The position numbers and the translations under genes were made by a program. A DNA stretch of 64,000 nucleotides, taken from the NCBI RefSeq assembly GCF_032062105.1, contig NW_026918900.1, positions 62,001 to 126,000 of the forward strand. The letters run 5' to 3'. Under the pieces are notes generated by a model. It did not search any database and had not been told where the DNA came from. It saw only the letters and a list, made by a program, of their open reading frames with translations. The DNA comes from Saccostrea cucullata (lineage: Eukaryota). Below are positions 16,271 to 47,104 of this stretch, in pieces. Position 1 is the stretch's first letter; each line of letters starts with the position of its first letter.

Positions 16271-17601
16271 TTTTAAATAAAGGTAGAAATGCATATTACA
16301 TCTAAAAATAAAAATAGCTCAATTTGAACAGTTTTAAATGTATGTTTGAATCAAATTAAAAGTATGCATTTTGTAAGAACTTTAACATAACCAGCAGCGA
16401 ATTAGACATCACCCCTTTGACCTTAATTTCTTAATAATTATATAACATACTGAAAATATTCTTAAAACTATACACTAGTACTACTTCCAAATTTAGTTTT
16501 CTATTCAGAAAATATGGTTCACACAGTATAGTTTTTCCAACGAAATAAAACCAGTTCCACTTAAGTTGGCTGAAAATATTTGAAATTTATTTCCATTGTT
16601 TTTTTTACAAGTACAATGCATTTGATGGCAAAATATGATTAATGATAAGATCATTTCATATTTTAAGTTCAGAAATTGTTCAAGAATACACTCTGACATG
16701 ATGTTTTGTCAATTTTTCTTATTTGTTCACAAAGTTCAAGGGTTCACATTTTAACTTGAATTTCAAAATCTGTACTTTGTATAAAAGAAAGTTTTCAGTT
16801 CAAAAAAAGCATTCAAACTTAACAATAAACAGACATCTTTAAAATAAGATTACACTTTAACTGTCATTAAAATTTCTATGTAAATATTTCAGTCATCCCA
16901 CTGATGCTAGGTGCCATTTCAAATATAACAAAGACTGAGTTTTGATCCTAATTTATATTTTGATTTGTAAAAAAAGTGCATTTGTACACTGTCCTTGATA
17001 TTACATGCAACTGTATGTTTCAAAGTTATTAAAAGCAATATTTATTTCACTTGTAACTTTACCTTATAATATTTTTTCTAAAAAGGGATGTGGCACTACC
17101 AGGTCATTCATCTTGTGACACTTATGTAAAAACACATTTATCATAACAGTTGTTAATTAAACATATATCTTGAAAGTTGTTAATTACATTGAAGTGACAA
17201 TAAGGTACAATTAGTGTGAGTTCAGACTAGAGAAAATAATAACCAATAATTATGAAGCAGTTGGGACCAATAGGGCCTTTGTAATACATAACAGGAAGTG
17301 TCTGGACAACACCAAATATTAAAAAAAACATATTTTAAGGAAGTACATATCTGATTTATATTAGAACTTTAAAAGTTGAAATTGCCTAAATTCCTGAGAA
17401 CCAAGATATTAAATGTGTTAACCAGATAATACTGTATGCAATTTCTTATTAAATCAATTTTTTCAGGAAGTACATTGGAATAATACTGTTTAGCTGTCAC
17501 CCTGAAATTTCCAAAATTCCTGAGAACACAGATTATGGGTTTTAACAAATTATACTGTGTGTACATGTATTTTGTGGATTTCTTTAGATATGCATTATGC
17601 A

Positions 17602-20600
17602 TCATTTAGCTTCATTCTGGTCTAGATAGACCCCGTGCTTTGCCAACTCCTTTTCTGCTGCCTCCAGAACTGTCTCTATGGACCCACTGGCATCTATTTC
17701 TATACAGCTAGGCTCCTCCATTCTCTTGTAGGCTAGGTATAATCTACAGCAATTACAGACTAATTAAGAGTATCCAAAAAATATACGCAATATTATTGAA
17801 TTTTGACTTGATCACTATTTTTACTTCCTTTGCACAAGGGTACACGGTTTTTTTTTTTGAGTAAAGTGTCATTAAAATTTTTTAAAACTTCCTTTATTTG
17901 ACTGTGTTAAATGATTCCTCACTTTCATATTTAGCAAAAGCATGAAATTAAACTTAGATTATCAAGAATGTGTAAAATTTCAATCAGTTGTACATTCAAC
18001 TGTTTCAGGGTTCTCCATCGTTTAAAATTTTACTGTGTTGCAAAGTTTACGCAAAACACTGAAATTTCGTAGTATTTTCACGATCAAATTTGCAACTGAA
18101 TCACTATTCATTATAATTACAAAAGAATACATTCTTACACTTATTTAAAAATCGCTAATTCGTTACACAAATGGAATGGTCGTACATATTGATAAAAGTA
18201 AAAGCACATGTACTGAAAAGCAGAGGAAATTCTGTTCGATACAGTTGTACTTACATGAAACATTTTTTAAAGTAATTTTGTTTATTTGTCAGTTTTCTTG
18301 ATTGAATTACCGAATTACAGAAAAAGAAACTTTAGAATAAAAAATTACTTTTAAGAGTTCCTTGAACATGTTGAAAATTTTCAGCAATTTATTTACATCA
18401 ATTAAATGACTTCGGTACGATTTTATGTTTGACTTACAGTGCTAACATAATACTTTACATCCGTGGCTCTATAGAAAAGACATATTCAAATATTTTTAAA
18501 AGTACAATCTATTTTAATGCCAATACCAATTAACCATGACATGGAAGTGTGAAGGCGAGGGTCTAGGAGATAACTGATTATGCAAGGTGAAGCCCTACTA
18601 ATTACATATAAGTGCTCTACATTTTAGAACTGAAGGATGGAAGAATTGTTTGATTAAAGCTCCAGTTAGAGAGGATTTATATGTTTGGATTTTCTAAATA
18701 TCACAGATCTTACTGTGTCGGCAAAATTTTTACTGTGTTGCACGCATAAAATTTGAATTGTTACTGTGTCAGAGAAAATTTTGCTGTGTCAGGAGCAACA
18801 CAGTAAAACAGCTCATGGAGAACCCTGACTGTTTGAAGATTTTACCTTTCTCTAAACAGTCTATCTTTATCTAGATGTTTTTCTTCTTGAGTTTTCTCCC
18901 CTCCTCTTAACAGCATCCTCTGCTTTCTGATCTCCTCACTGACTGTCAGAAAGAGGACAATGTCTGGGGTTAAAAGGTCACTGGGCCACTTATACACCCA
19001 GTGGCCTTCCAATGGAATGTCTTCATTGCTTGTTTCATTGGCTATACCATAAGCTGCAGTACTGTGCCAGAATCTAGAGCAGAAGGGGAAAACTGTTATT
19101 TAGGGATTAACAATTCTGCAATTAACAATTTTGGGATTAACAATAATTCAAGTTTGCTTAAACAATTATAAATTTGCCTCAAACACTACACATCTGCCTT
19201 TCTATTTCAATCACCAGCATAAAATATAAGAACATTTTCTGAGACATGATATCTGAATGAGTTTTTCCTGCTCTTTTGATGTATACATGTTTTTTAATTA
19301 TTTCACATCAAAACTTTCTCTGATTTCATGTCTGCACTAACCTGTCCATGATAACAGGTTTTTCCTGACACGTTTTTAGTATTGCTATGGAAACAATATA
19401 GTTGCCAATGGAATAGTAGGCCCTTCTGACGATTTCTGGAAGGTCATCAAAACGTTTCCTCAGATGCTGTATTGGGGGAGGAGGTGTAAAATATCTACAT
19501 GCAGCCATTTTCTTCTCCAGTGTTTCAGTCAAGGTGGTCTTCCCTATTTAAAACAATTTTTTTCAGTTACATCAACTGTGGTTTATAAAAAAAAATAAGA
19601 TTTGTAATTGCCAAATTTATTGTTTGTCAAGAATCAACTTCCAGTTAGTCTCTATTTGATAAACAAGAGGCCCACGGGCCTTATAGGTCACCTGAGCATT
19701 ATGCAACAATTTTCCAGTTATTGAATTTGATTCATGTTTTAAGCCAGATGCTATATGACATTCACAATTTTGAAAGAGGCACCATTGATCATCATAACAA
19801 TACACTTAGCAGTTGCTTAGCTTGGTTACTGAATACCCATATGCAGGGTAGGGGAACAAAAATGCATTCCAACTAACCAGTAGTGCCCCTAACACTGTGA
19901 CATAAACCCCTGACCCTAGGTCCACACATTGCACAAATTTCAAAAAGGCACCCTTAATATAAAAAAATAAATGTTTTATAAATACAAAAGAGCAGATTTC
20001 AAACAAAAAATTCATTTTCAGTATATAAGTAGAGCCCCCACCCCACCCCTGACCCTGGGGCTTTGAAATTCACAATTCTGCAAGATTAGGGCCCTTGCTC
20101 ATCATAACTATAAAGGTAGTTCATCTGCTTTATACCCAGAGACAAAGAAAAAAATTTCAAAGATTTAATGTATTTTCATTATATAATCAATTGAGCCCCG
20201 CCCCCCTAACACCAGAACCCCTGACCCTAAAGCCATAAAATTCACAATTTTAAAAGAGGCATTCTTGCTCATCATAACTATGTACTTAGTTTATTTAATT
20301 CCTAGGAGCAGAGAAGAAGATTTTCAAAGAATTCATGTATTTTCAATATATAATCAATAGAGCCCTGCCCAGTAACACCAGAACCCCTGACCCTGGGACC
20401 ATAAAATTCACAATTTTGGTAGAGGCACTCATGCTCATCATAACTATGCACTTAGTTAGTTTATTTAATACCTAGGAGCAGAGAAGAAGATTTTCAAAGA
20501 ATTCATGTATTTTTACTATATATAATCTATAGAGCCCCGCCCTAACACCAGAACCCTTGAGCCATAAAATTCACAATTTTGGTTGAGGCACTCTTACTCA

Positions 20601-22664
20601 TCATAACTATGCACTTAGTTGGTTTATTTAATACCTAGGAGCAGAGTAGAAGATTTTCAAAGAATTCATGTATTTTCACTATATAATCAATAGAGCCCCC
20701 CCCCTCTAACACCAGAACCCTTGACTCTGGGGCCATAAAATTCACAATTTTGGTAGAGGCACTTATGCTCATCATAACTATGCACTTAGTTAGTATATTT
20801 AATACCCAGGGGCAGAGAAGAAGATTTTCAAAGAAATCATGTATTTTCACTATATAATCAATAGAGCCCCACCCTAATGATAGAACCCCTGACCCTGGGG
20901 CCATAAAATTCACAATTTTGGTAGAGGCAATCATGCTCATCATAACTATGCACTTAGTTAGTTTATTTAATACCCAGGGGCAGAGAAGAAGATTTTCAAA
21001 GAAATCATGTATTTTCACTATATACGAGGGTTGTCCCGTAAAATCGTGGACAAGTTGTCTAGTGTGAAAAATAAACATCACTGCGCTCTGAAGTTTTCAC
21101 TATTATTTAGTACATTTTTTAGTAATATACACAGCAAATTTCAGATAAATATATGCATAAATAAAGAAATTATGAGATTTTATGTCAGGTATTGTATCAC
21201 TTTACGGCGCATGGATTATAACGTCAGAGTGTCTAAAACAGCGTCACGTTTTATCTTTGTTGAAAATGAAGTTGGATGAGTCCGACTTAAATTTAGGAAT
21301 TCATTGATACTCATTCTTTAGTCTCCATAAACAGTCGAAGAACCAATATTGGCACCATCATTCCATCTTCTGAAGATTTATTAGTAAGTTACGGACAATA
21401 TTCTCACCATCATTCAACTAATAGAAAATCTCATATCGGCGGTCCACGTACTGTGACAGCGTCTTTTGCTATAACAATAGGAGTTTGTCCGTATGTTTTG
21501 TACTCCCCAGGGACTTGATCAAAAAAAGACAAGACTTTACTAAGAAAACTCCCATTTCATTTGTATACTTAAGAAACGGGGATATTTTTATAATCTTTTT
21601 TCTTTTATGGTCATTTCAAGTCTCTTAAGGTGTCATCGAAATAAAACTCAACTGCTCTCCGGTGCGCCGTAACGTCATAAAACGTCGCCATTTTTCGTGT
21701 GTTGTGTTTACCACTTTCCCATTTCGAATGCTCGAGAAACTGCCAAAAATTAACCAAATGTTTTGAAATTTTTACAAAGACTACAAAATTGATTGTGGAA
21801 TGTAATTAGGATAATTTTAATCCAAATCACATGTATTTAAAACTTTTATTTTGAATTCAAACTTGTGTATTCTTTAATAAAACCTTGGATTTTTGACCGT
21901 GCGCCGTAGGACAATACCCCGTGCTCATTCAAGCATAATAAAATCTTTATTTTTGCCTATATTTTATCAAAAAAATTATCATGCACTCGAATATGATAAA
22001 TAAACATTTACTGAAAATTTCAACTTAGTGCGCCCATTACTTTTCGAGAAAAACGTTTTGTCCACGATTTTATGGGACAACCCTCGTATAATCAATAGAG
22101 CCCCGCCCTAGCACCAGAACCCCTGACCCTGGGGCCATAAAATTCACAATTTTGGTAGAGGCACTCATGCTCATCATAACTATGCACTTAGTTAGTTTAT
22201 TTAATACCCAGGGGCAGAGAAGAAGATTTTCAAAGAAATCATGTATTTTCACTATATAATCAATAGAGCCCCGCCCTAGCACCAGAACCCCTGACCCTGG
22301 GGCCATAAAATTCACAATTTTGGTAGAGGCACTCTTGCTCATCATAACTATGTACTTAGTTGGTTTATTTAATACCCAGGAGTAGAGAAAAAGATTTCCA
22401 AAGAAATAATGCATTTTCACTATATACTTATTTAGCCCCGCCCTAGCACTAGAACCCCTGACCCCAGGGCCATGAATTTCACAATTTTGGTAAAGGACTC
22501 AATGCTGATTACAATCATGCAAACAGTTTGACTGCTTGATGTCCAGGAGTAAAGAAGAAGATTTTTAAAGATTGCATTAATTTTAGTGGTTTTGGCCCCA
22601 CCCCTCAGGCCCCAGGGGGGCCAGGGATCATGAAATTCACAATTTTTGTTCCCCTTCACCCATA

Positions 22665-22695
<31 letters not shown>

Positions 22696-24291
22696 TTCAG
22701 TGGTTGCAGAGAAGAAGCTGAAAATGTTCAAATGTTAACACACGACGGACGACGAACGACGGACCGACGACGAAAACGGATAGCAATAGGTCACCTGAGT
22801 TTACTCAGGTGACCTAATAAAAGTTAGAAACAAATACACTTTTTCTGCCAGTCACCTTGAACTTGCTGTAATGACCGTAGTCAATATCAATACCCCCCTC
22901 CCCCACCCCCACCCGCCCCCATCACATGCAATTTTTGTGATAAAGTATGAGCCTCTGATGTTCTCCATAACAGAGAGGAATTAAAATTTTTCCATAAAAG
23001 TCATAAATAATCAGATCTGAAAAAAATCCCCTTGTCATATACTTATATATACCTCTTAATAACTTTTTTCTAAAAGCAAATCATTATCATGTTTGGTTTA
23101 GTCAGTATTGAACTTACCAGTAGCATCAAGTCCCTCCACCACAACAAATGGAAATTTCATCATTTTCTTCAGATCTTTGAGGCTAAAGTCTGTTGGGACA
23201 GTGGCATCATAAATTCGAAGGAGTTCCTCTGCCTCTCTGATGCATACTGTGGACTGAAATTATTTTTTAATTAATGGAATACCTAATTATGCTAGATCTC
23301 TAGGCCTGATGGTAGAATATTAAGGTTTTAGACAAAATCCCAGAGTCAATATGATATGCAGCAAAGAATACATTTTGCTGCAGCTAATAATTTCAATTCA
23401 ATTTGACTACTAATGAGCATTTTTTTTTACCTGCAAGATTTTCTAAAATCTCTATTGTGCCCCCGCCCCCTCCATCATGATAAATTTACAAGACTAATTA
23501 TGTTTATTAATCATTTACATTGTATATTGTAAACATGTACGTACCTTTTCCAAAATGGACCGTGTCCGCGTTAGACTGTGGAAAACGGGGCAATATAATT
23601 CCCTGTCAAACACCGGGGAGGTTGAGACTGGATTTGAATCGCATCGTTGAAACTCTGCATTTTGTACAGCTGTACTTGATTGAGACAGATCGCCGTCATA
23701 TCGCAGCACTTCAATGTTGTTTTCATTCCTACAATCTGTTCCGTTTTCTTTGGGAAAACAACTTATTCGAAATAATGTATCTATTCCATATTTCTGAAAT
23801 ATTTCCTTTATCACTGGTGTCTTTTCTTTATCCAGATTAAATTGCCATTTTGGTATATCTGCACTAGGCCAGTTTCCCGAATACAGGGCCACACCTCGAA
23901 TGACAGGAAATCTAGGCCTACTTTCACTTTCCCCAAACAGTACGTAAGCTACGTTCAAACCATCAATGTTTGCAAGATTTAGATCTCTGGTTACATCATA
24001 AGTTGCGATGGCCGAGTTTAAGTAACTATCTACCTTTTCTCCCTCATGTTTAAGTTGTTTAAATCCAAAACCGAGCAGAAATCCACTTTCTTGGTCACTG
24101 TCGAGGCTTTGGGGAGGCGGATCTACTTTTATAGAAATACTTGTTAAAGAAATTGTTTGTCCTGGTAACACGATGGTAAATCGCCCGTTTGTCCAGTTAG
24201 ACATACGTAAAACTGCTTTGTAGAAGTAACTCTGCTGGTGCCAGTATCTGGAACAAAATCCAATAATTCGCGCAATTTTCAATGACCCCAT
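17602..24291 (-). CDS. CMPK2: UMP-CMP kinase 2, mitochondrial (CMPK2), 484 aa; exons 24291-23545, 23253-23118, 19543-19342, 19073-18846, 17743-17602
   Basis: Spliced product has P-loop FPFVVVEGLDATG|KTTLTE, RKRFDDLPEIVRRAYYSIGNY, PVIMDR|FWHSTAAYGIA, VYKWPSDLLTPDIVLFLTVSEE and AYKRMEEPSCIEIDASGS, all CMPK2 signatures. All introns are GT-AG with matching phases (0,1,2,2); CDS 1455 nt; TGA at 17602-17604. Confidence 0.93.
18006..18827. mobile_element. Non-autonomous P-superfamily-like DNA transposon in CMPK2 intron 4
   Basis: TIR CAGGGTTCTCCAT / ATGGAGAACCCTG; exact 7-bp TSD ACTGTTT (17999-18005, 18828-18834); subterminal TTACTGTGT repeats. Confidence 0.8.
19663..22816 (+). mobile_element. Helentron-associated (Helitron-N2/HINE-like) element carrying ~10 copies of a ~168-bp Cg170-like satellite, in CMPK2 intron 2
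   Basis: 5' ACAAGAGGCCCACGGGCC..GGTCACCTGAG; tandem monomers (AAGAAGATTTTCAAAGA..CCAGAACCCCTGACCC) with ~164-171 bp period; (GAC)n/ACGG microsatellite; 3' hairpin AGGTCACCTGAGT-TT-ACTCAGGTGACCT. Confidence 0.88.
21025..22086. mobile_element. Tc1/mariner-type MITE (second family) nested in the satellite array
   Basis: TIR CGAGGGTTGTCCC(G/A)TAAAATCGTGGACAA; inserted in the TATATA of a monomer that resumes in register afterwards. Confidence 0.9.
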
Positions 24292-24701
24292 TAAAATAGA
24301 CGGTTACCATACAATTCGCTCCATTTTTTTTTCAAGCAGTACTAGATAATAACATTATCGTCGAAAACAACACAGGGTTCAGCGTTTGTTTGTTTTTTTA
24401 ATAAAATTGGTATTAATAAATTATATTTTTATTGTCTTTTTCAGAATTTTTTAGAACTAAAAATATAGAGACGGGGGTAACATGAAATATAGTACTGTAA
24501 CTGTTCAACTTTTGCATCCCGAAAACTGATATGTCGAATACCGTGGATAAGTAGAAGTGATCTGAAAATCCCGACCAAAATGAATTTTATTTATTATTAA
24601 GTAATTTACCTCCAATATGTAGAAACCTTGGTTATATCGAACTTACTGTATTTACAAGTATAATTATATTTTCTTACTTGTACATGAGATTAGAATATTA
24701 A

Positions 24702-24921
24702 GATTCATAAACGCTCTGCTAACTCATCTAAAATGTTGCTTGAAACTTAATGACTTTCCAAAAGAAATGTATTTGATAAGTAAAAAACAAACAATTATAG
24801 CATAGCTTGCGGGGCAAAATTGGACAAAAAAAACACTTTGAAAACTTGGCAAATCCACAAAGGAATGAAAGACATTTGTCATCATTTACAGTTATCTCTC
24901 TTATCAGAGTATCGATGAACC
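24702..24921. mobile_element. Short TTAA-flanked MITE, copy 2
   Basis: TTAA|GATTCAT...ATGAACC|TTAA; homologous to 6653-6869. Confidence 0.6.
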
Positions 24922-25671
24922 TTAAATTAATATTTCATTAGATGGTCTCTATATCTGTTATTAAATATTAATATACTTTCAGGTAAATTAGTTGAATCCG
25001 ATTGTTCGAGAAACATTTTGTTAAAAAACACTATTACCCGTTGAATAATGAAGCCACGCCCTCCAGCGTAGCAACAGTCAACATTGCTTGACGTACGGCC
25101 AGTGATATTCCAAAAAATAGCGACTGCGCAGAATTTATGCGCCCACGGTTCACTGTTATATGTATTTCTATAAAACATTTAGTGAAATATAATAAATATT
25201 GCTTGTAGTTGAGTGAAACATTGAAAATTGTCATCACTCGAAAACCATTGTCAACCTTGGCTGCATGCTACATGCAGTATTGATATAATGATGATAGCAC
25301 AAACCAAAAATTTTCTATTGGGTTTTCCATGTAGTAAAACGTAATTTACATGGATGTAATGTAAAGTATTTAATACATGTACTGAACATACTGTACAAAG
25401 TAAACGCAAGTACCATATGCATGAATAATTTTTATCTAACTATAGCTTACATGTATTTTTAGAAAAAAATGTCACATGAGCATGCCTGATAATAATATGA
25501 AAAGTAATTAACTTAAAAATAAATAAATATTAATTTTACAACATTCTTTTCCTACAGCAATATAACATTATCCATGTTTAATTAACAGATGTATATATGA
25601 GATGAACTATACAGTCTTTAGATGACTATGGATTCTTTATATTTCGATTTGTAAAAAAAATCTTTCCTTTC

Positions 25672-27858
25672 TCAAATAATATCAATCTGAAAAGAAACTC
25701 CTTCAAAGCCTTCAGCTCTAGGAATAAGATGAATATAACATATTTTCACCAGACATTGCTCAAATGGAATTTGTAATACCTCCGTGTTGCCTACGTAAGA
25801 AGATTTGTATGTTGTCAAAGTTTTGTCCAGATCTAAATCATTATTTACATATAAATCAACGTCACCAGATCCACCCTCTGTAAAAATCCGAATAAACCGA
25901 CCAGAAGATGTATGTCCATCAAAGCCAAAGACAATATTTTCTTTTCCTTTTGCGGTCAAACTCTTGATGTGTGTTTTCCCGTAAATTTTTCGGATGTATG
26001 ACTCTATTTTGCATACATCGATTCCCACTACCTTGAATGCTTTTCGAATAATTTCTAAATCGTGACCTAGATCATAAGTGGCCTTTAGGACCCCACAAGC
26101 TGCATCCGAAAAATTGGAATGAGGAGCCCAATAGAACCGGTTAGCATGAGTAAAGATCTGAAAAACTATCTTAAGTCCCAAACTGGGTTCGTTGATCAAT
26201 GTACATGACACTTTGTTGAATATTCCGCTGGAATCATGAACTTCCATTCCATCCTGGTAATCTTGCACATGGACTATAGAGCTTCCATCCTTATTTTGAT
26301 TGCATATATCACGGATCCCTTCATTATCATTTTTATCCGACTTAGCACCAATATGAAGATCAAACGTCCCAGTGATGTAAAATTCTAAGGCTTCGCCAGC
26401 TAAATCGGAATATGCCTCATTAACACCACCAGACTGATTGGCATACACGAGATGTGAGTGACCCTCGGTGAAAATGTGAGCAAACTCGTGGCCAACTACA
26501 TCGTACGTAACTAATGGATAATAATACTTACCACCATCACCAAACACTAAACTTACTCCATTGTATGAAGCCTCAAATTGTAACTTTCCATAATGTACCC
26601 ATACATCAACTGGAGGCTTGGATACAAGAGGCGCGTGTGCCCATTCTTCAAACATTTTGAAGACTTTCTCTGACATATAAAAAGCATCGGCCATTGGAGA
26701 AAATCCTCCGTTTACATTGTCTTTTATGCCTTTGCTGCAAGGAAATTTATATGGCTTAGATTTTGATGAAGGTGTTGTTGCAGTTTGTAAATCGAACACT
26801 CGTACGTATTTGGATTTAAGTTGACATCTTTTCCTTGCTTGATCAATTTTGACTTTTAGAGGCGGGAAATCTTCACCGTAAATAATTTTCTGTGTTTTCT
26901 TGTTACCACCTACAGCATTAATACCAGAATTCTGTAATCGTTGTGTTCTGTAAAGCATTTGTCCAGAATTTGCATCAATGACATATCCTGGTCGTTTCAT
27001 TATTCCTGGTGCAATAATTGTCATTGTGACGTCATAACACAGAACTGCTCTGTCATCAGTTGGCATTATCATCAAGAGAGTCTCACTCTTATATATCATT
27101 GACGTATTATTTAATCCCTCATTGAGCAAAGCAACCGATAACGCTTGATCCTCACTCAAACGTGGAACAACTTCTTTTATATCCTCCTCCAGATCGTCGT
27201 ACCATGAACCGGAAACTTGACCTGTCCAATGACCCGTGTCGGAATCAACTTCCTCCGTGATGTAAGCATTGTAAATGGGAACGCCTTTGTACGTTTCCTG
27301 GAGTCGGACAATGTTTGTACTCTCGATAGATTTTCCTTTGTCCACAGCTTTTAGGCCATTATATTTATCTATCAACAGCTCCTCTATACGGTTTGTCGGC
27401 TGTTCGCTGTTTCTGATGTCTCTTCTTCTCTCGTTCAGAATTTTATTTATCTTTAAGCGTACATCCAGTCTGCGATGCCCTGAGATCTGTACAATATAAA
27501 CTGAAAAAGAGAGTGAAAGTTTAATGTGATAATACATGTAATTAGATGAATAACTTTGATAATATCCAAGATGTCATCGCTCAACATGTATCTGTGTTAC
27601 ACCATGAACGCCATTTAGAGAAATGATTTTCAAATGTGAAATTTCATAATGTTTTGTTAATATGCAAAATAAATTTAGTACTTTCTCTCAAAAAAATAAT
27701 TATAACATTTTGTTAGTTATTAAGATAGAAAATTGATTCCTTAAAGTTTGAAATTTAAAAATAAATTAATAAAAAAATAAAAAATTTAATACAATATAAT
27801 ACCATGGAACCATAAACTTACTTATGCCTAGGAATGTGAGTAACTTTAATGACTCCAT
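25672..27858 (-). CDS. Secreted M4-family (thermolysin/vibriolysin/LasB-like) zinc metalloprotease, 621 aa; exons 27858-27822 and 27500-25672
   Basis: FTP propeptide (VRLQETYKGVPIY), PepSY (YVIDANSGQML), mature start GGNKKTQKIIYG, NGGFSPMADA, HEFAH, GGVNEAYSD, VHDSSGIFN, and a C-terminal PPC-like domain (GGSGDVDLYV..GNTEV). A phase-1 GTAAGT..TTTTTCAG intron (27821-27501) yields signal peptide MESLKLLTFLGIIYIVQISG. Confidence 0.92.
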
Positions 27859-28624
27859 GACAGCAAGAGCAATTGCTTTGCAATGAGAATTTAGTGCATT
27901 TCCGGAAAATATTAACTTGTTGTAAAATACCAAAGTTGAATTTGATGTGATATTACATTATTGACCTTTCAAGGGCGGTAATTCAGCTATTACTTTAATA
28001 ATTGTAAATAATGCTGATTGCATACTCATTGTGATATATAATTGCAATGCTCAAACAAGGACAATATGAGATCAATAAATACGAGGATTGATCCAAAAGT
28101 TCGTGGAATTTCTTTTAAAAATTTTACCGTCATTTAATGAAAGAAAACAACAGGCATATTTATAATATAGAATCATAATACAACAATATTTGAAAATTTC
28201 ACCACTTTCCAATTACCAATAACGTCACACGAGCTTTCTGAAAATGAATTGTTGGGAAACCCGACTTCGACGCTACGTCAAGTTTGATACGCTATAGAAG
28301 CATGTCACTCTAATGTCCAATTCGAATACGTAATTCTACAAAATGCTGCCCTTTTCTCCATTTTTTCTCAAGAAAAGCCTGTGTATCCTTTCGCACGAAC
28401 TTATCTTCATTATTTCACTCATATTTCAAAATACTCCCCATCTTTCCATATTTTTATAGTATAAATTTACATCGAGCACGATGACTTTAGTTGTTGTGGA
28501 AGTATACCGCACTGTATTAATTAATGTATCATACCGGTAATATTGACCAATGAAAATGAACTTAAAGTCAATTTAACTAGCTCCAAATGTTCCAAAGCAA
28601 TGTCAGGAACAGTACGTCAGCCGG

Positions 28625-31079
28625 TGTAACGTTGAATATGCGTATTGACCCGAGTTGAAAATTGACCCGGGATTCATTTTTCAACGTTGAATACTGAACC
28701 GGGGGTGTTTTTTATCCGTTAGAAATTGAGACTAAAATCGTTGAATTTATACCCGGGGACATTTTTCAACAGATTTATGACCTTAGCAAGTTGAAAATTG
28801 ACTCTGTTGAATATTGACCCCACCACAGAGTTAGAATATTTTTTGAACTTGGAAGTTGTGTTACGAGATTTATCAGTATCATTATTATCTATATTTATAT
28901 TTCGGTTTCAATTTTTTCCCTTTTCAAGAATAATAGAATTAAACCTATCAACCCGTATATAAATGTATGTACATTTTTATAATTACACGATTTAAGTTAT
29001 CTTCAAGCATGACAACTTATTTATTTTTTGTTAATACTTTCTAAGATCCATAGCATCCATAAATAACTACAAAACTATGAAACGAGCATAAAACAAAAAT
29101 CCTGGAAATCTTGTATCTAGAAAGTGAGATAATTCAGGTGGGCAGAACATAAAAATACAAAATAAAATTTAAAGCCTAAAAATTAGAATGAAACACATCG
29201 GCCAAAATGAATCCAATGATAGGTTATATTTGTGAAAAAGATCAATATGGCGACCATAGCATGCAAGTTAATGTTGACTTTAAACAAGGTTTGTGAAATC
29301 CCTTTAACAAACTTATCTGTCAATAGCTAGCCTGCCTCGGCTTAAAAATTGTATCGTTTTCGGAGCATAACCTTGAGAATGAGATTTTTCTAATTCTAAA
29401 ACAAATCATTCTTATTCGATACAATGTGATTTGTATTCGATTTGTTGTTATTCCTATTCGATAATTTATAATTTGTATTCGATAAATTGCTATTCCCATT
29501 GGAGGAAATATGACAATATGATTCCTATATCATAATACTTATATCATTCTTTTCGAAAAAACGCGTTTCCTATTCGATGTCATTCATATTTGAAAACATG
29601 CGATTCCTATTCGCTAATTTTGTCATTCCTATTCGATATTTTATCTTTCTTATTCGATAATGATTTGGTTTACATGCAATAAATTTGTTCAAAAACAAAC
29701 TAGCATCCATTTCTATTCGAAAAAAATACAATTCCAATTTGATAAACTTCTTATCTTGTTGCATAATTTCATCTCTCCTATGTGATGTTTTTCTTATTTT
29801 TTTTCAGTACTTGCATTCTGGGAAATATGACAAAACTAGAACTGGTTGTAAACTCAGTTAAATAGGAATAACATGTTTAACATGATTATCGAATATAAAT
29901 CATTTTATTATCGAATAGAAATGACAAAATTATCGAATAGGAATCACATATTTTCGAATAGAATAACAACTTAAAGGCGATGAATTCTCGAACAGAAATA
30001 TCGATTTTTTTTTTCGCACAAGAATAACAATTAAAATAGGAATCATATTTTATCAAACAGGTATGACATGATTTAGGAAAAAACCCCAAATTTTTTAATA
30101 AGAATAAAAAAGTATAATAATGAAACGTTTTACCCGCCATACCATAAACAGGTGATAGCAGAATATTACTTCACAAATACGGAATGTTCACTTTGGAAAA
30201 GATGAAGAAGAAATCATTTCTTTTCTTATACAGTAAGTTGGCCTTCATCTTCCATATAGTGAGTAAAACTTCAAAACATGAAACAGTTGTGGGACATTCA
30301 GTGGTGACTTTAATTTAAAGTTCACCGGGATATATCGAGTCGACATATGAACTAAAGTAACTAATAGTAACTATTGTTACTTGAATTAAATGTTGAGTTG
30401 AACTCCACAGCAAGTGTATTCTTATTGTCATGTAAATGTTTGTAAAAATATATTCTGATTTTGCTTCATAGAAATATTAAAACAGGTCGGCCAATAAAGG
30501 AGCACAATTGGTGCCTATCGAAATTCTAAGTTTTGAGGTAAGAACCGGTCTCCGAAGACTGCAAAAAATTTCAATATCAACTTCACAATACTGATAGAAT
30601 CACGGTGATTTTAAACAAAGTGATTTTTGTTGATGACCTATCACAAGATACGAAAATTTCCGAGTTCCATTTTTATTGAGAAAGCAGTTGTCTATGATGT
30701 ACAAATGTATATAGTTTAGAATTTGTCGCGAGGAATGCTTGTTTAGAGTGTACAAAAGTTGTACGTTTTGATGTTACTGACTTTTGAAAAAATTGTGATT
30801 TAAAATTTTCTAAAGTGGAGGGGGGGGGGCTACGCATCCCTAGCTCCCCGCCCCCGTACCCAACGCCTATAAATTAAATTACAGCTGTGAAAACCAAGTC
30901 ATACATATGTGTTTTTATGCTGTTGAATTTAGAACCGGTTTCATGATCAAAATTCCACGACCCGGCTCAGTTTTCAAAGGACTACCCTGGGTCTAAATTC
31001 AACACCTTGGTCTCAGTATTCAATGTTGAAAAATGACCCCCGGGTCAATTTTCAACCCGGATCAAATATCAACGTTACA
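28625..31079. mobile_element. Non-autonomous Ginger1-like DNA transposon nested in MITE copy B
   Basis: TGTAACGTTGA...TCAACGTTACA termini; CCGG duplicated at 28621-28624 and 31080-31083; long imperfect subterminal inverted GTTGAAAATTGACCC repeats. Confidence 0.75.
29246..30141. mobile_element. Possible IS3EU-like MITE with TATTCGA/TCGAATA subrepeats inside the Ginger-like element
   Basis: TATGGCG...CGCCATA ends; left half rich in CTATTCGA, right half in TCGAATAG; no TSD seen, so boundaries are uncertain. Confidence 0.4.
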
Positions 31080-33001
31080 CCGGTAAGGTCCATTAACGAT
31101 TTTAATTTGTCTAGGGGGATAAACACTTGAAACAGAGCCCCCAAAAGGCGGCCACACTAGCTTTAATCAGCGTCCATGCATGGAAGTTCTATTTTTCTTA
31201 AATTTCTTATACCACTGAAAAACCAATAACTAAATGCATTTCCCCCCAGCCTATGTCAATATAACATACGTGTTAAAGATAGAGTGATCCCGGGATTTTT
31301 ACAAAATTTATGACTTGACCGAAATTTAACGTTGTCTAACAACTTTTAAAAAGATGAACAATAAATCACCAACTAATTAACTAAATATTAAGTAAAATCA
31401 GTATAACTCTCACACAAAGGTTTATAAAAGATCAAGCAATCGTAATAATAACATAATTTTTGTTTTATATACCACGTAGGGTGGTTTTATTCTTATTTCA
31501 CGTATTAAGAATTAAAATGATAATAAACGCGTTAATGTCTCCCCTGCAATTCCAAGCAACCGTTTCCTAGGCAACATCTATTACTATTATACAATCATAA
31601 ATATTTAAAATGTTTTTTTTTTAAATTTAAAATATTCAACAAGTGTCTATATTCTTATTTGTAATTTTGAACCAATTTCACATAAAAATGAATAAAATAT
31701 GAAGAAATTCCACGAACTTTTGGATCAACCCTCGTAACCCTCAATTGTTCATTTTAAAAATAATTTCTATACACGAAAATCATTCAGCATGTAGTACTAA
31801 AAATCGTATTAAATTAGTTTTATCTCACATCATATCAAGCACATGAAATAAAATTCTTTTTACACCAATATTAAAAAAATTCTGAATTCTTTATATTTCA
31901 AGATATAGATGTGCAATCTTCATGAATGTTTGAAAAATTATATTATTATATTATGATTTACATGCTTTGATTCTGCCAATCCAAACAAATTATGGCTCCA
32001 AGCCTGCTTCTCTCTAGGTGTTGGCCCTGCACGTGGTTTTTTTGGAACCGCGCCAAAGGACATTCATGAGGAAATCAATTACATTTACATTTGGTAATTT
32101 TATCTCAGACAAAGACATTGGAAATGTAAATATTTAGTTTTATCTCACATCTCATCAAGCACATTTATGAAATAAAATGAAATCTTTTTACATCAACATT
32201 AAAAAAAATTCTGAACGTAGATGTGAATGAAAAATTCTTAAGAGGGACGTTAAACAACATACAATCAATCAATGTTTCGATTTAATCGGACAAGTTTACA
32301 AATAGTGATTATTTTCTCCTTTATTTCTTTATTTTTATAATTATCATTTATCAGTCAGTAAACACAACTTGACAACCATTTAATGTGCAGATTAATTCTT
32401 GAACAGTAACTCTTCATTCAATGAAACATACGATGATCATATATATATCAATCGCGAAGATATAAATATAAACAGTAAAATGTATTTCTTTAATTGTTAT
32501 AGTTTGGGAATTAAATAAGGTTGCAGTTATTGTAGAAAAATTTCGTTTGGTTATGCATTTTTCCTGCAACAGCTGCACTATTCATTCCCATAAATTCACT
32601 TCGCCTGAATATTATCTTAAGTACTTAATATGAAAACCATCGTTGTTAATCAATCAGTACAAAGCCATCTTTGCTAGCCAAGGGTTTCTGATCCACTAAT
32701 CTCCTCACAAACCCTCGGCCTATGGTGCTGTCAAAAGTCCTGATCGTAAAGTCACGTGATATCAAATCAGAGATTGCGTCATCGACGGATTGAAAGAAAA
32801 GGTACCTATGAGCCAATGAGAATTAGAATTTTAGAAAAAAATATTTGATTACAATGCTTCAAATAGCTGTTAAACAGTGCTAAACAGAAAACAGAACAAT
32901 TAAATGTAATTTAACTACATGAACATATAAATGTATAGTTTTCTTAATGGTTGCGATGACAACGTCAAAAGAAAGGTCACAGTGTAATAATGTGAATGTG
33001 G

Positions 33002-33368
33002 CAGGACCGTAGCATCGGTTTTGAAAGTGGGGGGGGGGGGGGGGGCAGCCACTGAAATTTTTTTTTACTTACCTGAAAAAGTTGACAAGAAAAAAAAAAT
33101 TGCCCAAAGTCGAAAATCCTATTTCGTGGGGGGGAGGGGGGGGGGGGGGTTGAGGCAAACTTTCTTCACTACCAATTCCTTTCGATATCCATTTTTTTTA
33201 AGCTTACAATACTATATTTCCTTCATATTTCTTTACTTTAGTATAAAGTGTGGGGGCCAACCAGCCTTTCAATGAGCATTTTCAATAGTAAAAGTAGTGT
33301 TGGCAAAAAAAGTGGGGGGGGGGGCAGCCCCCCCCCCCCCCCCCCCCCCCCCGGTTGCTACGTCCCTG
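33002..33368. mobile_element. MITE with long G/C tracts
   Basis: CAGGACCGTAGCA / TGCTACGTCCCTG imperfect TIR flanked by a TGTGG direct repeat; several poly-G runs and a poly-C run. Confidence 0.6.
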
Positions 33369-34089
33369 TGTGGTGAGACGGTTTAAAAACAAAGCAAAGT
33401 TAGAATATCCGGGTATATCAGTCTTACAATAACCAAATATTAACGAGGTCTCAGACCCTCTTTAAAATAATATCTGTGTGTCCTCTTCTGATTCAATTTA
33501 AAAGTATCGGGTGGGTAAGTAGGTGTGAAAATCTTTTCTTTGTGACGGGATAAAAGGAATAAAAAAAAATCAGTGTCCTGGAATGTTAAAAAAATGAGTC
33601 GGGTCAACTTTAGCTATTTTTTTTAAAGATGGCTCATTTGATTGATTTAATTTCCACTTAGGTAATGCATCTATCTTCCACACCAAACTTTACTTCGTTC
33701 CTTTGTCCGTCATACAGCCTTTATTTATATACTCGTATAAAAATCCCGGAGAAAATCGATAGTTAAATTTTTCTAAAACAGAATCCAGAATGGGATTTGT
33801 AATTATGTACGTTGCCCATGACAAGCTTTGTAAACCACAACGTGTTATGAATGAGAAAAATCCCTGTGGTTCCTGAAACTTAAACTTCCTAACAAAATTT
33901 TTGACGCCGTAATAATTTGTAACATTCTTTCTCCACAGTCCACATTCTGTTTTTCTTACTTATAAATGTCCTTTCGATATTGCTTTAAAACGTATGAATT
34001 AAAAATAAAATATTCACATTGCATAGAAATAAACCATCTAAAGCAAAAATTTATTCTTCCCTTTTCATCCGTAGTCCTACTCTAGTAGA

Positions 34090-34900
34090 CATGTCACTAA
34101 CGATCATGGAAGAGTAGTTATATCGATGAGGAACTTAAGACATTGATTTAGAAGGTTTGGAGTTCAGGGAACTTCAATCTATCAATCTGCAAAAATATCC
34201 TAATATATATTATGAATTCTGTCGAAAATGATACCACAAGACGAATCATTGATAAATGAGAAGACAACGATACTTTTGTAGAATTGATTCTTAGACAGAA
34301 ATTGTAATTCTGAAAAAAGAAAGGGTTAATAGCAAACTGCCAACCATTTCTCTTTCTTCCATAAGAAAGAAAGTAACCAAATTTACTAGTTCTAGTTGAC
34401 AAAACAAATATGAACACAATAACGATTAAAATGCTTTTTAGAACTTGGATTCAAATCTGCAACTTGTTGATATCTAGAGTATGCTCTTGATTTCCTTTCA
34501 AGGATAGAGATTCTTCAAACCCAAATGCCAATTAATTGTACATACTTTTTGTATTAGAATTTCTTAATACAAACAAATTCAATCTGGATTTCTCCTCCTA
34601 TACGATTAATTCCAAAATATTATTAACAACTTTAAAAATATGCATTGTAGGGTCTTTCAAATAATCTTGGAAAACCCTGTCTCAACTCTTCAGAAATTGC
34701 ATTAAAAGTGTTCAAAATCGAATGAGAACTCGTAAAAACCTTTTAGACAATTTTAAAACACATCTTTTTTTAAAAGTAAAATTCTATGACTTCTTCGATA
34801 TACAAAAGTACATCATATTCACCTACAAAACAATTTTTTTTAAATTCATAATGATTCTTATTCTACTCAAAATTACAAAATAAAACATTCTCCTTTAAAA
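34090..34900 (-). mobile_element. Decayed LINE (L1/Tx1-like) ORF2 C-terminal fragment
   Basis: Broken coding-like sequence on the minus strand, absent from the corresponding flank of the paralogous nAChR gene. Confidence 0.4.
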
Positions 34901-35089
34901 AAAAAACTCTGACTGTTGTATTCAATATTTTGCTGACGTTTTGTCAAATGACAAAAATTATTTTCATCTCTAAACGTCAATTCGCAACACGAATCCACGT
35001 GAGTTCAAAATATATCTAAAAGACATTTCTAAATAGATTATAGCCTATCTTTTGCAAAAAGTAAATTGATTCTGTTTTAAAGGTCTAAA

Positions 35090-36310
35090 CTAAAGAATTT
35101 CAATGCATAAAACACAAAATGAAGCAATATTTAAGCTGACGATGCACACCATAAAGATGTTTTCTACTCTCATGGCTTTTTCTTTACTGCGGGAAGTGGA
35201 AGGTTTCAAAAGTCCTTCTGGACTAGTTAATGTTTTATCGCTTTCCATCACCTTGTAGACAGTATTACAGTGAAGCTGTTGTACATTATCTTTTTTCTCG
35301 GGATCGGGATCTCCATGATAAATACGGAGAACAATGGTTTCCAGAATCACAACCATCGCGCTCAGAATTACCTGTGTAGTAACATAAATGCTGAACCACG
35401 AGATGTTCTCTGAGGATGAAGGCATTGTGTCGCTTAGAATGCTGGCAAACACGGCAAAGGTTAGAAATAAAGCCATAGACATGCCAATTTTCTCCCCGGC
35501 TTCCACTGGCAGAATAAAGCAGAAGATGTTCATTAGTGAGAGAACCATTATTGGTATCACCGAGGTTAAAATGGCCATGGCTGGACGTCGTTGTATCTTC
35601 AAGACGAAATCGAGTCTAGTGTCAATGGGATTATTTCTTCCGTACATTATTTTTTTAATTTCCCTTTCTAAAGAAATTAAGTTCCACTCTCCATTTGTTG
35701 TTAGGCTTGATGTGTCAATTAAGGAAATTTTCTTCTCAATTTCTAATTTATGAGTGTTTGATAATATAGGCTGAAAGGCATAAGTGCATTTCTGTTCGTC
35801 AAACGGGTATCTCTCCACATTAATTTCACACTGAATCGTGCTCTTCACCGTATCGTATAAAGTAACACTCCCATAAGGTAAAATAAAAACTTCATTGTAT
35901 TTAACGGAATTAAAACTGATACATTTCTTGTCAATTTCTAGTTCATTCATATTACAAACGGCTGGAATCCAGACTTTTTCGGCAGGAATCCTCAAACTTT
36001 TAACATTATATTCTGAGATATTCCAGCGGAGATATTCATCTATCCACGAATAAGCCAACCAGACAATTGATGAAAACGTTTGTGACTTCTCGTTAACATG
36101 TTCTATACTATGAAGCGCAATGGACACACCAAATTTAACATAGTTAGTTCTGTTAAGGACAGGTTTACGAAATCGATTGTATCCATCAAAGAGTGCATTT
36201 TGGAGAGATGTTTCTGGGTCCATTTCCCCGAGGGCTTGACCAAGAGAAAAAAGGGACGCAAAGAAAAATGGAACACACTTGGACATAATACGAAACATGT
36301 TCAGTGACAT
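35090..36310 (-). CDS. Intronless Cys-loop ligand-gated ion channel, nAChR-like non-alpha subunit (copy 1)
   Basis: Signal peptide, WIDEYLRW, VWIP, Cys-loop CEINVERYPFDEQKC, NGEW, four TM helices with GEK before M2; no vicinal CC in loop C. Confidence 0.93.
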   Translation of the reverse strand: MSLNMFRIMSKCVPFFFASLFSLGQALGEMDPETSLQNALFDGYNRFRKPVLNRTNYVKFGVSIALHSIEHVNEKSQTFSSIVWLAYSWIDEYLRWNISEYNVKSLRIPAEKVWIPAVCNMNELEIDKKCISFNSVKYNEVFILPYGSVTLYDTVKSTIQCEINVERYPFDEQKCTYAFQPILSNTHKLEIEKKISLIDTSSLTTNGEWNLISLEREIKKIMYGRNNPIDTRLDFVLKIQRRPAMAILTSVIPIMVLSLMNIFCFILPVEAGEKIGMSMALFLTFAVFASILSDTMPSSSENISWFSIYVTTQVILSAMVVILETIVLRIYHGDPDPEKKDNVQQLHCNTVYKVMESDKTLTSPEGLLKPSTSRSKEKAMRVENIFMVCIVSLNIASFCVLCIEIL

Positions 36311-37623
36311 TAAAGGAATATGCTACAAGATAGACATTACCAAAGTCAAATGTATACGTTTATATTTACCAATCAATGCGATTTATTTACATAGTAATAT
36401 CAAGTATGAGAAAAGAGTCTTTTCAATTCTGTTGAAATAACAGCAGTTTTAATGTTTCACGACTGTCATGTTGGAAACCCATTTGCAGAGTTATTGAATT
36501 TGATAGAGAACAATTAATCTGAATTAGTGAAAATCAATATTTTAATGCGTGTATTTTGTTAGTTAATGACTGGGTCTCAAATGAAAATCACATTTCCTTC
36601 TCAACATAAGAAGAATTAGCATTGATGATTTCATTGTACAGATCTATTTTTAGACTAGATTTCAGACAAAGTCTGTTTTTAGAGAGCGCAATCTGAAAGA
36701 AAAATTGATTTACAACTTACAAAAATCCTTCAAAGTTGGCCAAAACAGCATTATGTGCTTCAATTTGTGCATGGATTTTGGCATAGAAGTCCTCAGGGCA
36801 GGCTTGCCCCTAAATAACATTGAGATATTTGAGTAGGATGTGATGTAAGGAATAATTCAAAATATTTTAAGGCACCCTGTCATAGGATCGAAATTTAAAT
36901 TTAACCCCCCTCCCTCCCCGAAAAAAAACACATATATAATATTTTTAGTTAAGAATAGTTCAACTGATATTAGCCCTGGCTATTCACACCCTGTGCACGT
37001 TTTTTAAAGTCGTTTTAAGTATATATAAAGATATTGATAATAATTATGTAGGTACCAGACTTTGTGGATTGATACAACATTGTAATGCACAAATATTCAA
37101 ATAACGAATCTGCACATTTCAGTCACCTCAGTGATATAGAAAGCTTTAAAGGTCCCTAAGTAGCATATATAGGTTTGTAATTAAGTAACCTTTTATTAAA
37201 CTATCAGTAATCTTCCAATCACTTTTGAGTTACGAAATGACGGTGTTCTATCCTGCAGACCTAATTGACCCTTTTTGAGGAATATTCAAACTGATATTCA
37301 ACGAATAATGATTCAATCATGGACAGTTACTGAACTAATGAGCCATCAGTATTATCTTTTATTATATACCTAATGTGTATCATCCAATTTTACTGTTGAA
37401 TTTACGCTACCACATGACGTCGTGATCCGATTTTCCGGATCACCAACATGTTGTTTTTTGAATCCATATCACCACTCTCTGAAACTGATGACGTAGTACG
37501 CAGAAATATGACGTTATTTTTCTTGCGCGTTAAAAAGTCCCTTGTTATTATGCTTTGTTTAATGGATTAATATTATCCAATTTATCTCTAAAGGTTTATT
37601 TTAACATATTTAGCCAGTTATAA

Positions 37624-38830
37624 TTCATTCATTCTTTATTTCCTCATAATATGAGATTATTTAACACAATCAGAACAAAATCAACTATTCATTGTACAAA
37701 GTTAGGAAAAGAAAATAATCAAACAGAAGAAAACGAAAGTGAAAATAGTTAATGGATATATACAACGTATCACTTCATACAAGAGGGAATTTGTTAACTG
37801 TCCCCCACTGGCATATGTTGATACATCACCCTGTAGTAATGTGCTGATGCATCCCGTATAAGTCGGAAGTTCTTTACTTGGAAATCTACAACGTTCTGTT
37901 CTGCTATCCTGGTGTTTAGAGCGCGACCAAGGAGTATGACATACAGTTCTTCATCGGTGAGTGCACATACCTCAGCTGAAAGTTCAATACAGAAGGTGTT
38001 TGTGATGTCACTGCACCAGTTGTTCCGGATGTTCGAAGTGATAAGGCATGAACAACTAACATGGACAAACAGATCACGGAATGCAGTCCCACAGAAGCGA
38101 CAGATATCCACTGAGTCACGCGGCGGGTCAGAAAGGAGTTTGCATATGAATTTGTATAAGCGAATTTCATAGCAATTCTTTGGTGTTCGCCAGAAGGAAG
38201 ATGGGTCGTTATCACAGAAGACTGCATGAAACCTAGAGAAATCAGTGTTGTTCGCCATACGACATTGTCTTAAATCCTTCTGTTTTCTGCTGGTTGTAGA
38301 TCTTACAATGTTTCTCCAACTTAATTTGGAAGGGAAGACGCCGTCAGCTACCCATTCGTATAAGAATTGAAGAAGATCATATGCACACAGTAGGTTAATG
38401 GCATCTGGAACAAATCCTTGTTGACAGTTGCTCAGGTTAGCAAAGAAGGAAAACAGAAGGACTAAAAATATTTTCTTTGGTAAAATATTGCAGTTCATAC
38501 GACACAGACGTCCAAAGAACACGAGTTTCCTTAGTCTATCTCAACACTTATTGGAAGGACGTGAAAGAGGGTTTCACAGATATCGGATGTAGTTTGGCGT
38601 GGAAGGTTCTGTGAGGACTTGCATATAGAATGTCATGAAGGCGTTGAGAATCTGTTGCTGACAAGTTATTCCACAGTTCGCAGCCGTACAATACAGAAGG
38701 CAGGATGACCGATTTGTACAGATGGACTAAGGTTAGTGGATTAAGGTAGGGATATCCAATGTCTGTGAGAGTATAAAAGGAGTTTTTACCTTTCCTGCAG
38801 GCAGCATTTATTCGGTCCGTTAAGGAGGTC
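37624..38830 (-). mobile_element. 5'-truncated LINE (L2/CR1-like) 3' end
   Basis: ORF2 C-terminal remnants (LYKSVILPSVLYGCELW; CRFCG..H...C) with frameshifts; 3' tail AATAAAGAATGAATGAA on the minus strand at ~37624-37640. Confidence 0.75.
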
Positions 38831-38837
38831 CGTTGAA

Positions 38838-38901
38838 AGGCGCGGATCATCAGATCAAACTCGACGCTTCGCGTCTCGTTTGATCTGATGATCAGCGCCT
38901 G
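38838..38901. repeat. Hairpin with GCTTCGC loop
   Basis: AGGCGCgGATCATCAGATCAAAC..GACGC-TTC-GCGTC..GTTTGATCTGATGATCAGCGCCT. Confidence 0.7.
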
Positions 38902-39404
38902 TCAACTCGACGTGATACGACCCTTCTGATCAAGTTACTGTTATAATAATATATATGTATCGTTTTTTTTCAGATTATAGCTATAGTTAAGCAGAACATC
39001 CAAAAAAACGAGAAAGACAACCTTCTATCAGACTGTGCTTCCTGAAATCAGTCTTTGTCCGAAATTCAGAATTGTTCTTTGTATAGCTCATTCATCAATG
39101 CAAATAATGTTTGGGACATAGCTAAGACATTGTAACTAATAAATATATACAAGATTAAAATATTGATCTTCACTAATTCAGTTTAATTGTTCCATATCAA
39201 TATCAATAATTATATAAATGGTTTCCAACATGATAATGGCGTGAAACATTACAGTTCTCGTTAAGTCAATAAAAATTAAAACTATTCATACGAGGTTCTG
39301 CTTTGTTAATAAAAAGCATAATTATTGACTGATAAAAATAAAAGTATAAATCATGCTTTTGCAATGTCCATGTTGTAACCTCCTCTATTAAATTGTCACT
39401 GAAC

Positions 39405-40616: not shown

Positions 40617-41559
40617 TTTTGACTTTTCAAAGATAAACAAGTTGCTTTCAAAAAGATCACTTAAGATTTTGGAAATTGTCTCCAATCCCGATGATATAAA
40701 TTATTATACTATATATTGTGAATGAAAAAGGTTCAAACAACTTGATCGAATTGAATGACTGGACTCTTGTGAGAAAGAATGTTACATTTTTTTTAACGTT
40801 GTCAGAATATTTGTTAGCATTGAACTCGCCCATTTGTTATAAGTGGAATGATTGAATTTAGGATACATAGTTAATGTTTGGTTATTGTAAGACCGATGTA
40901 TCTTACTACGCTTACCTCCTTACATCTTGTTAAACAGTTTCAGTACATACATGTAGGCGAAATTGTTATATTTTGACCTGAAGAGGACATCATAAAGAAA
41001 AACTGTACGTATACATGTAGTTACTTTTTTGTATTCTCCCATTTTAGCACAAAATCTGCTATTCACTTACTGTACCTATTAAGTATAATTGATGTTATTT
41101 TTCTAAAATTCTAATTCTCATTGACAGAAATTAAATTGAAGACATGTAAACAAAATGTATTTTGATTCTTTTATTTATGAATTTTTTATTCTTTGTTGTT
41201 TTGATAATCCTCTAAAGCATAAAAAAGTTTAAATGTAAATCACCAGTATTTAGAGAAAGTTTAATGTTCATGTATTGTCTCCAAAAGATATCTCGACGTT
41301 CGGTTTTCCACCATACTGTTGACGACTTTTTTTTTAAAAAAGAGTGCTCATTAATTCCAATTTTTGTCTTTCATAGTGAATACATAAAAACAACCTAAAT
41401 CAAACATTAAATACAAGTTATAAAAGCAGAATATATCCTAATGTGTCCACTTGGTACATTTTGAGGTCAACAAGGATATTTGCTGTCACCATTCCTCTTC
41501 CTCTTAGTAATTGACTGGATCATGAGGAATACAATTAACATGCAGGAACAATACCGTAG

Positions 41560-46627: not shown

Positions 46628-47104
46628 TATTATTAATAGGCATTCCTATTTTCATAATATGCAAAGTAAGGTACGGCGGTCCATTCATGCCGTAACCCTG
46701 GTGACATTCAATAAATCAGTTAGGATTTTCTCTGGTCTTTTCTCATATCTTGTTTTATTTTTTACATTTATTACCATGGTTCCTGATGATGGGGATGGTG
46801 CGATAAATATGAAGCATCGATATGATGATAATATAATTCACTAGATCGATGCACCGTGCCATATTACACCGCCACCGAAAACAAGTTAAACTTGTTTACA
46901 AGTGTATTCATAGTCACCTGTCTATATTATAAACATGATAAAAGTGGTTTAAAATTAATTCAATGCAGAGTGTTTCGCTCTAATGGACATTTTGATTTGA
47001 CATTACTTTGTGTCAATCTTTTTTTTCTATTTAAAGGTATATGTCATTCTTCGGGTTTTTTAAAAGAAAATTTCAGCAGAACATATTAATTCTAAACTAT
47101 TTAT

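Follow-up and report, generated by a model that had tools for sequence, protein, structure and literature searches.

The locus examined here raises the question of how a gene for a bacterial type of protease came to lie in the assembly of the oyster Saccostrea cucullata, and whether it belongs to the animal at all. M4 proteases count as microbial enzymes and, in shellfish pathogens, as markers of virulence. In the window (the whole stretch of 64,000 nucleotides analysed here) a minus-strand open reading frame at 27573-25672 encodes an M4 peptidase. In this study we show that the gene is host-encoded, spliced and transcribed in related oysters. Our preferred reading, which we consider probable, is that of a spliced oyster gene for an intact M4 enzyme, which was taken from a bacterium no later than the mollusc radiation and has been inherited from then on, its product a zinc protease of the LasB/vibriolysin type that is predicted to be secreted and would cut insoluble extracellular protein.

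The gene model consists of two coding exons:

27858-27822, minus strand: exon 1, coding part of 37 nt with the ATG at 27858, signal peptide residues 1-12
27821-27501, minus strand: intron of 321 nt, phase 1, GTAAGT...CAG, GC 0.22, inside the signal peptide
27500-25672, minus strand: exon 2, with the remaining signal peptide, propeptide, catalytic domain, PPC domain and stop
25577..25582, minus strand: ATTAAA, a candidate signal for polyadenylation 90 nt beyond the stop codon; reads cease in bin 25568-25701

Joined, the exons encode a 621-aa M4 prepro-metalloprotease with a hydrophobic N-terminus. The initial annotation had proposed that a 37-nt upstream exon and a phase-1 GTAAGT..CAG intron build the signal peptide, and the joined product does match the signal peptide written there; in the 3 kb searched upstream, exon 1 is the sole candidate that combines an ATG with a donor in the correct phase. 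The gene model is already present in the automatic NCBI annotation, where the identical product is P0001, 'elastase-like [Saccostrea cucullata]'. The earlier suspicion that homologs may be auto-annotated in bivalves was thus correct: P0001 and its orthologs are among the NCBI molluscan models named 'elastase-like', 'neutral protease-like' or 'virulence metalloprotease-like', labels given by similarity only.

Evidence for splicing comes from the 4 of 24 listed runs that were aligned, which share about 90-94% of their letters with the window and hence come from a related lineage. Contigs from X1 and X2, two studies whose status as RNA is presumed, connect 27499 with 27830 through nine intervening letters, so that a net 321 nt, the length of the intron, is removed; the contigs supporting exon 1 run 43-59 letters past 27830 into the 5' UTR. 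The proposed junction 27822/27500 is therefore seen in these contigs, and the oligo-dT raw reads of X11 miss it: none of them lies over the junction, and they cover the 3' part only (bins 25568-26371) at a depth of about 1-6, too low to agree with an abundant enzyme in the tissue of that run. An unspliced start at an in-frame Met within the intron is disfavoured by the depth inside the intron, which is 0 in bin 27578-27711 in all four runs. In a C. virginica-cluster protein a 27-aa block at the matching place of the signal peptide separates a read-through form from the NCBI model, the two showing besides this block 3 differences in 623 aa. In our view the block represents this intron in another genus of oysters.

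The surroundings of the gene bear on whether it is part of the oyster genome, and three neighbours are needed for the argument:

28080..28450: dispersed host repeat with at least 40 genomic copies, about 220 nt upstream of the gene
17602..24303, minus strand: multi-exon thymidylate-kinase-domain gene, downstream neighbour, given as exon-bearing ORFs with Pfam Thymidylate_kin on 18845-19099
35090..36322, minus strand: ligand-gated ion channel gene (Pfam), single ORF, upstream neighbour and synteny marker

A bacterial contaminant or an assembly chimera would be suggested by the intron-free gene body and the bacterial-type family, but several observations speak against it. The gene lies among host genes and repeats on a contig of 1,469,429 nt, it shows a spliced join, and there is no N within 17000-37000 of the window. 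The host-like AT content noted before is borne out by a coding GC of 0.39 and GC3 of 0.34, four of five neighbouring host ORFs having a GC3 of 0.32-0.38. The upstream repeat gave 40 scored matches among 1104 candidates in the own genome at 83-86% identity, and a second copy lies at 2086-2466 of the window; together with the same-strand thymidylate-kinase-domain exons downstream, which we take to be CMPK2-like, it agrees with the flanks of host transposable elements and CMPK2 described initially. In S. echinata the model P0002 fuses a receptor with an M4 protease; its N-terminal 350 aa and the upstream ion channel gene of the window are 73% identical, which places the same neighbourhood in a second assembly. 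The break between the gene and its flanks that was raised earlier as a possible objection is not found. We do not take P0002 for a real chimera and read it as an annotation fusion of neighbours. Some orthologs lie on chromosome-scale sequences of other molluscs. The intron-free gene body itself says little, because the neighbouring amine-oxidase, receptor and sirtuin genes are likewise long single ORFs. Contamination is excluded, and the chance that the locus is foreign sequence or an artificial join is negligible. One locus was found in the own genome by searches that included the group-B paralog protein (see below) and PF02868 and that give lower bounds.

Other features of the window deserve mention in their own right. 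The channel genes at 35058-36565 (minus strand) and 39133-40648 (plus strand) are inverted, divergent duplicates, single-ORF and nicotinic-receptor-like, 86% identical over 1.5 kb, and between them (37794-38901) lie ORF fragments resembling a decayed retroelement, with no Pfam match. At 45689-46645 (minus strand) we noted an intron-less Sir2-family ORF of 318 aa, presumably SIRT5-like, whose GC of 0.48 is well above its surroundings and which might be a retrocopy. A copper amine oxidase gene occupies two large exons at 2483-4588 and 208-519 (minus strand), the second resuming the Pfam profile at position 364, and an ankyrin-repeat exon at 59367-60068 (plus strand) resembles, as we see it, ANKZF1. 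Two tandem arrays with a unit of about 165 nt (19905-21025 and 22087-22584) lie within introns of the CMPK2-like gene; the unit length presumably fits an oyster satellite or Helitron-linked repeat.

What kind of enzyme the gene encodes can be read from three regions that follow the signal peptide:

26929..27476, minus strand: propeptide, FTP + PepSY-type, about aa 21-203, boundaries approximate; Pfam FTP
26011..26928, minus strand: M4 catalytic domain, about aa 204-509
25675..26010, minus strand: C-terminal PPC-type beta-sandwich domain, about aa 510-621

The full FTP-PepSY-M4-PPC layout claimed at the outset is carried in part by Pfam, which matches Peptidase_M4 (57.5 bits, cut-off 22.4), Peptidase_M4_C (86.8 bits, cut-off 24.4) and FTP only, and for PepSY and PPC, both below threshold, by relatives, folds and profile alignment. 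PepSY is matched in 11 of 17 relatives, and the propeptide fold matches that of vibriolysin MCP-02 (3nqz_A, E 1.5e-10). The C-terminal domain aligns with bacterial PPC tails (hhalign 98.3%; score 13.4, where the domain hits of 200 shuffles reach 1.4 at most) and has a Foldseek match to a collagenase PPC domain (E 5.8e-4). The motifs HEFAH, GGVNEAYSD and VHDSSG are all present, as had been noted, and the zinc and catalytic residues H350, E351, H354, E374, Y365, D378, R409 and H434 are all intact; their assignment follows the LasB residue numbering, mapped to the oyster protein through the match with solved structures. These eight positions and four cysteines are invariant in 29/29 rows of the mollusc/bryozoan group. 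An extra pair, Cys412/Cys445, occurs in 17/17 group-A rows (bryozoan included), and also in three bacterial rows and one other. The AlphaFold model (pLDDT 83, pTM 0.88) has a two-lobed fold with a beta N-lobe and a helical C-lobe, and the best folds found by Foldseek are the catalytic domains of vibriolysin MCP-02, ProA and LasB (for vibriolysin and LasB, TM by target is 0.86-0.89). Among PDB sequences the first match is Pseudomonas pro-elastase (E 6e-76), followed by MCP-02 vibriolysin and Legionella ProA, with thermolysin at 1e-23. These features support a bacterial protease of the LasB/vibriolysin type, predicted to be of the secreted kind and, judged by its residues, catalytically intact.

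Other sequence features were less telling. The oyster protein has four N-glycosylation sequons, but their frequency is no higher than in bacteria (0.83 vs 1.01 per 100 aa), and we rejected them as evidence of adaptation. Dibasic sites near the N-terminus, found in 21/29 and 13/17 animal-like rows against 19/54 bacterial ones, are not decisive. The His of the bacterial propeptide cut site is missing from the molluscan rows printed. Among the 26 coding differences listed between runs and window (with 389 further rows), nine codons are synonymous and 13 changed; because this sample is biased, most of it lying in the PPC domain, we draw no conclusion from it.

Comparison with characterised enzymes places the protein more precisely. 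Like Pseudomonas aeruginosa LasB (pseudolysin; PDB 1ezm, 8cr3) it has a signal peptide, an FTP/PepSY propeptide and a two-lobed catalytic domain, and the HExxH + E zinc site, the Tyr/Arg/His active site, the calcium ligands and both disulfide pairs align. However, the catalytic domains are 35-36% identical, LasB has no PPC tail and Pseudomonas is not the sister group; unlike LasB, the oyster gene is eukaryotic and spliced and its product carries the extra Cys pair and the sequons. The vibriolysins (Pseudoalteromonas MCP-02, PDB 3nqx/3nqz; Vibrio VemA, HapA and EmpA) share the whole layout including the PPC tail and give the best fold match, whereas the oyster protein is host-encoded and not a bacterial virulence factor, and does not keep the bacterial His-Ala/Gln cut site. 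Legionella ProA (PDB 6ya1) is likewise a prepro-M4 enzyme with a matching fold, autocatalytic maturation being described for the family in the available part of PMC10017501, but it is without PPC and without calcium and forms a separate branch in all trees.

The distribution of homologs is far wider than an oyster acquisition would imply. With look-up by cluster covering 30 proteins, and further searches besides, we could name homologs in 15 molluscs of four classes and one bryozoan, 16 species altogether: the bivalves Saccostrea (2 species), Ostrea, Crassostrea, Pinctada (2 genes), Argopecten, Ylistrum, Tegillarca and Mactra, further Octopus, Argonauta, Liolophura, Pomacea, Haliotis and Plakobranchus, and the bryozoan Watersipora. 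The family is overwhelmingly bacterial: there are 17,196 representatives at E<=0.001, the top matches lie mostly among bacteria in the tree, and the nearest Atlas clusters are 98-100% Bacteria. A metagenome DNA scan for oyster orthologs gave one locus in 61 stretches, which belongs to another group. P0003 ('vibriolysin', a JGI label) and P0009 ('Zn-dependent metalloprotease') sit inside the oyster clade: these are metagenome entries in which a host gene bears the name of a bacterial enzyme.

In a further animal-like group (P0213, P0363-P0369, P0374, P0377 and kin) several copies lie on equal-sized contigs (242,907 and 1,190,152 nt), suggesting tandem expansions, and the C-terminal tails vary. 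Two of its members come from a transcriptome of Siedleckia; because Siedleckia is a parasite of a polychaete, we suspect that these rows are annelid host sequence. Two M4 proteins come from foraminiferan transcriptomes (Rosalina and Nonionella). The corresponding entries P0052, P0152 and P0153, which comprise the M4 proteases of both and an M4-trypsin fusion, form one clade in the 103-row and 52-row trees that is lost under the mixture model; they might represent a second eukaryotic acquisition.

For the phylogeny, FastTree was run on 298 of 347 sequences (49 were dropped for partial cover, Tegillarca and Plakobranchus included) and IQ-TREE on 103 hand-picked rows, on 52 rows and on 53 catalytic-domain rows with a mixture model. 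All eukaryote-like rows fall inside the LasB/vibriolysin/ProA branch, with 100/100 support against eight thermolysin-type outgroup rows (mixture model). Two groups are stable. Group A unites this gene with oysters, pearl oyster, scallops, further bivalve-like rows and Octopus (98/86 with 103 rows, 100/98 with the mixture model); the gene clusters with the Octopus gene at 100/98, and the branching order agrees with what we take to be bivalve phylogeny. Group B holds chiton, Argonauta, gastropods, clams and the second Pinctada gene (100/99 and 100/97). Support for A and B together is moderate: 92/96 (103 rows), 68/94 (52 rows) and 81/79 (mixture model, without the bryozoan). The bryozoan, the further animal-like group and the foraminifera are unstable in their placement; under the mixture model the second of these breaks up, and the bryozoan is placed with a foraminiferan. 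Orthologs thus extend from oysters to octopus, with a second paralog group over four mollusc classes.

These trees allow the rival origins to be weighed. That oysters or bivalves recently received the gene from Vibrio or Pseudomonas would be in line with LasB and vibriolysin as the best solved-structure matches and with Vibrio heading the GTDB scan (33%), but we consider it very improbable: the homologs in octopus, chiton and gastropods already refute it, and identity is about 30-37% to bacteria versus 38-82% to other bivalves. In AU tests (LG+G4, 52 rows) of groups named after a tree was seen, a grouping of the molluscs with Vibrionaceae (p=0.0001) or with Pseudomonas/Chitinimonas (p=0.0002) and a bivalve-only clade (p=0.006) were all rejected. 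Of the transfer from a marine proteobacterium put forward in the initial annotation, the bacterial LasB/vibriolysin type is supported and such a donor is plausible, but no Vibrio or Pseudomonas sister group holds; its framing as an acquisition by oysters or bivalves has to be abandoned, given homologs in four mollusc classes and a bryozoan. The broad vertical distribution that had been set against a transfer is present within Mollusca, not for animals as a whole. Nesting under a specific bacterial donor is unsupported, because a tree with the eukaryote-like rows as sister to the entire bacterial LasB group survives the AU test (p=0.37).

That same result would also suit an older eukaryotic M4 gene, shared with foraminifera and lost in most lineages, which would need no transfer from bacterium to animal; the Rosalina and Nonionella proteins do group with all animal-like rows in the 52-row tree (81/94). 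We think this unlikely, since the grouping collapses under the mixture model and is without support in the 103-row tree, the foraminiferan branches are long, and a single animal-like clade without foraminifera fits equally well (p=0.53). Moreover, many losses would be required, and in our word-limited searches the matches listed included no named eukaryotes outside molluscs, the bryozoan and foraminifera. It might instead be that several independent bacterial transfers gave rise to groups A and B, the further animal-like (worm-like) group and the foraminiferan genes, the transfer of this gene predating the bivalve-cephalopod split. The internodes among the groups are indeed short and weak, and the worm-like group splits in 3/3 ML trees (2, 2 and 4 changes); yet the single animal-like clade is not rejected, and the N-termini translated straight through from genomic ORFs suggest, at the protein level, that group A and the worm-like group have a common acceptor located a few codons ahead of signal-peptide cleavage, so that we regard multiple transfers as quite unlikely. 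Within our preferred reading, an acquisition at or before the mollusc radiation, a more specific history is possible, though slightly less likely than not: one vibriolysin-type transfer into the lophotrochozoan stem over 500 million years ago, gain of the signal-peptide intron, and duplication before mollusc diversification, with an active site that stayed invariant in molluscs, bryozoans and probably annelids, where tandem arrays arose. That animals can retain a bacterial hydrolase acquired long ago has a precedent in the bilaterian alpha-amylase, to which PMC7003070 ascribes a probable proteobacterial origin; it differs in being a glycosidase, pan-bilaterian and of an unrelated family.

By analogy with the family, the signal peptide would route the protease into the secretory pathway, the FTP/PepSY propeptide would act as folding chaperone and inhibitor until its removal near aa 203-206, and zinc held by H350, H354 and E374, with E351 as base, would allow cleavage before hydrophobic residues. 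PPC domains are regarded as binders of insoluble protein, and here the domain would keep the enzyme on an insoluble substrate. For M4 enzymes in general, the accessible text of PMC10017501 describes a prepro-enzyme, a propeptide that is both chaperone and inhibitor and is removed after export, and zinc binding by HExxH and a further Glu, while that of PMC9785129 describes Vibrio enzymes of this layout acting on host mucus and tissue. We infer that the oyster protein is a secreted endopeptidase, most likely for digestion or for mucus or matrix turnover. Extracellular digestion of food particles and bacteria is our leading, though tentative, candidate for its physiological job, and turnover of mucus or matrix comes next as a possible one; a role in defence seems unlikely, and some other function more unlikely still.

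In conclusion, we characterised an old, animal-encoded variant of a known bacterial protease type that is both wider in distribution and older than the earlier reading had it. In the literature searched, which included few subscription journals, we found no description of animal M4 protease genes, and term searches gave no mention of M4 in the main text of the horizontal-transfer papers PMC13350694, PMC7826175 and PMC8476170 or in the supplements of the latter two. A 2020 deep-sea clam paper (PMC7826175) states that Mollusca had been without a reported transfer until its own case. A conserved, host-encoded M4 family throughout the molluscs would enlarge their set of protease classes by one and would rank among the oldest bacterial acquisitions in the phylum. 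It would also matter in practice, since a 'vibriolysin' match in a mucus proteome or an oyster metagenome can stem from the host, as P0003 illustrates, and it raises the question of how shellfish inhibit the M4 enzymes of Vibrio while using their own. If indeed a single lophotrochozoan transfer took place, this would be an undescribed animal protease family of a bacterial virulence-enzyme type, kept in the very shellfish that Vibrio attacks with that type.
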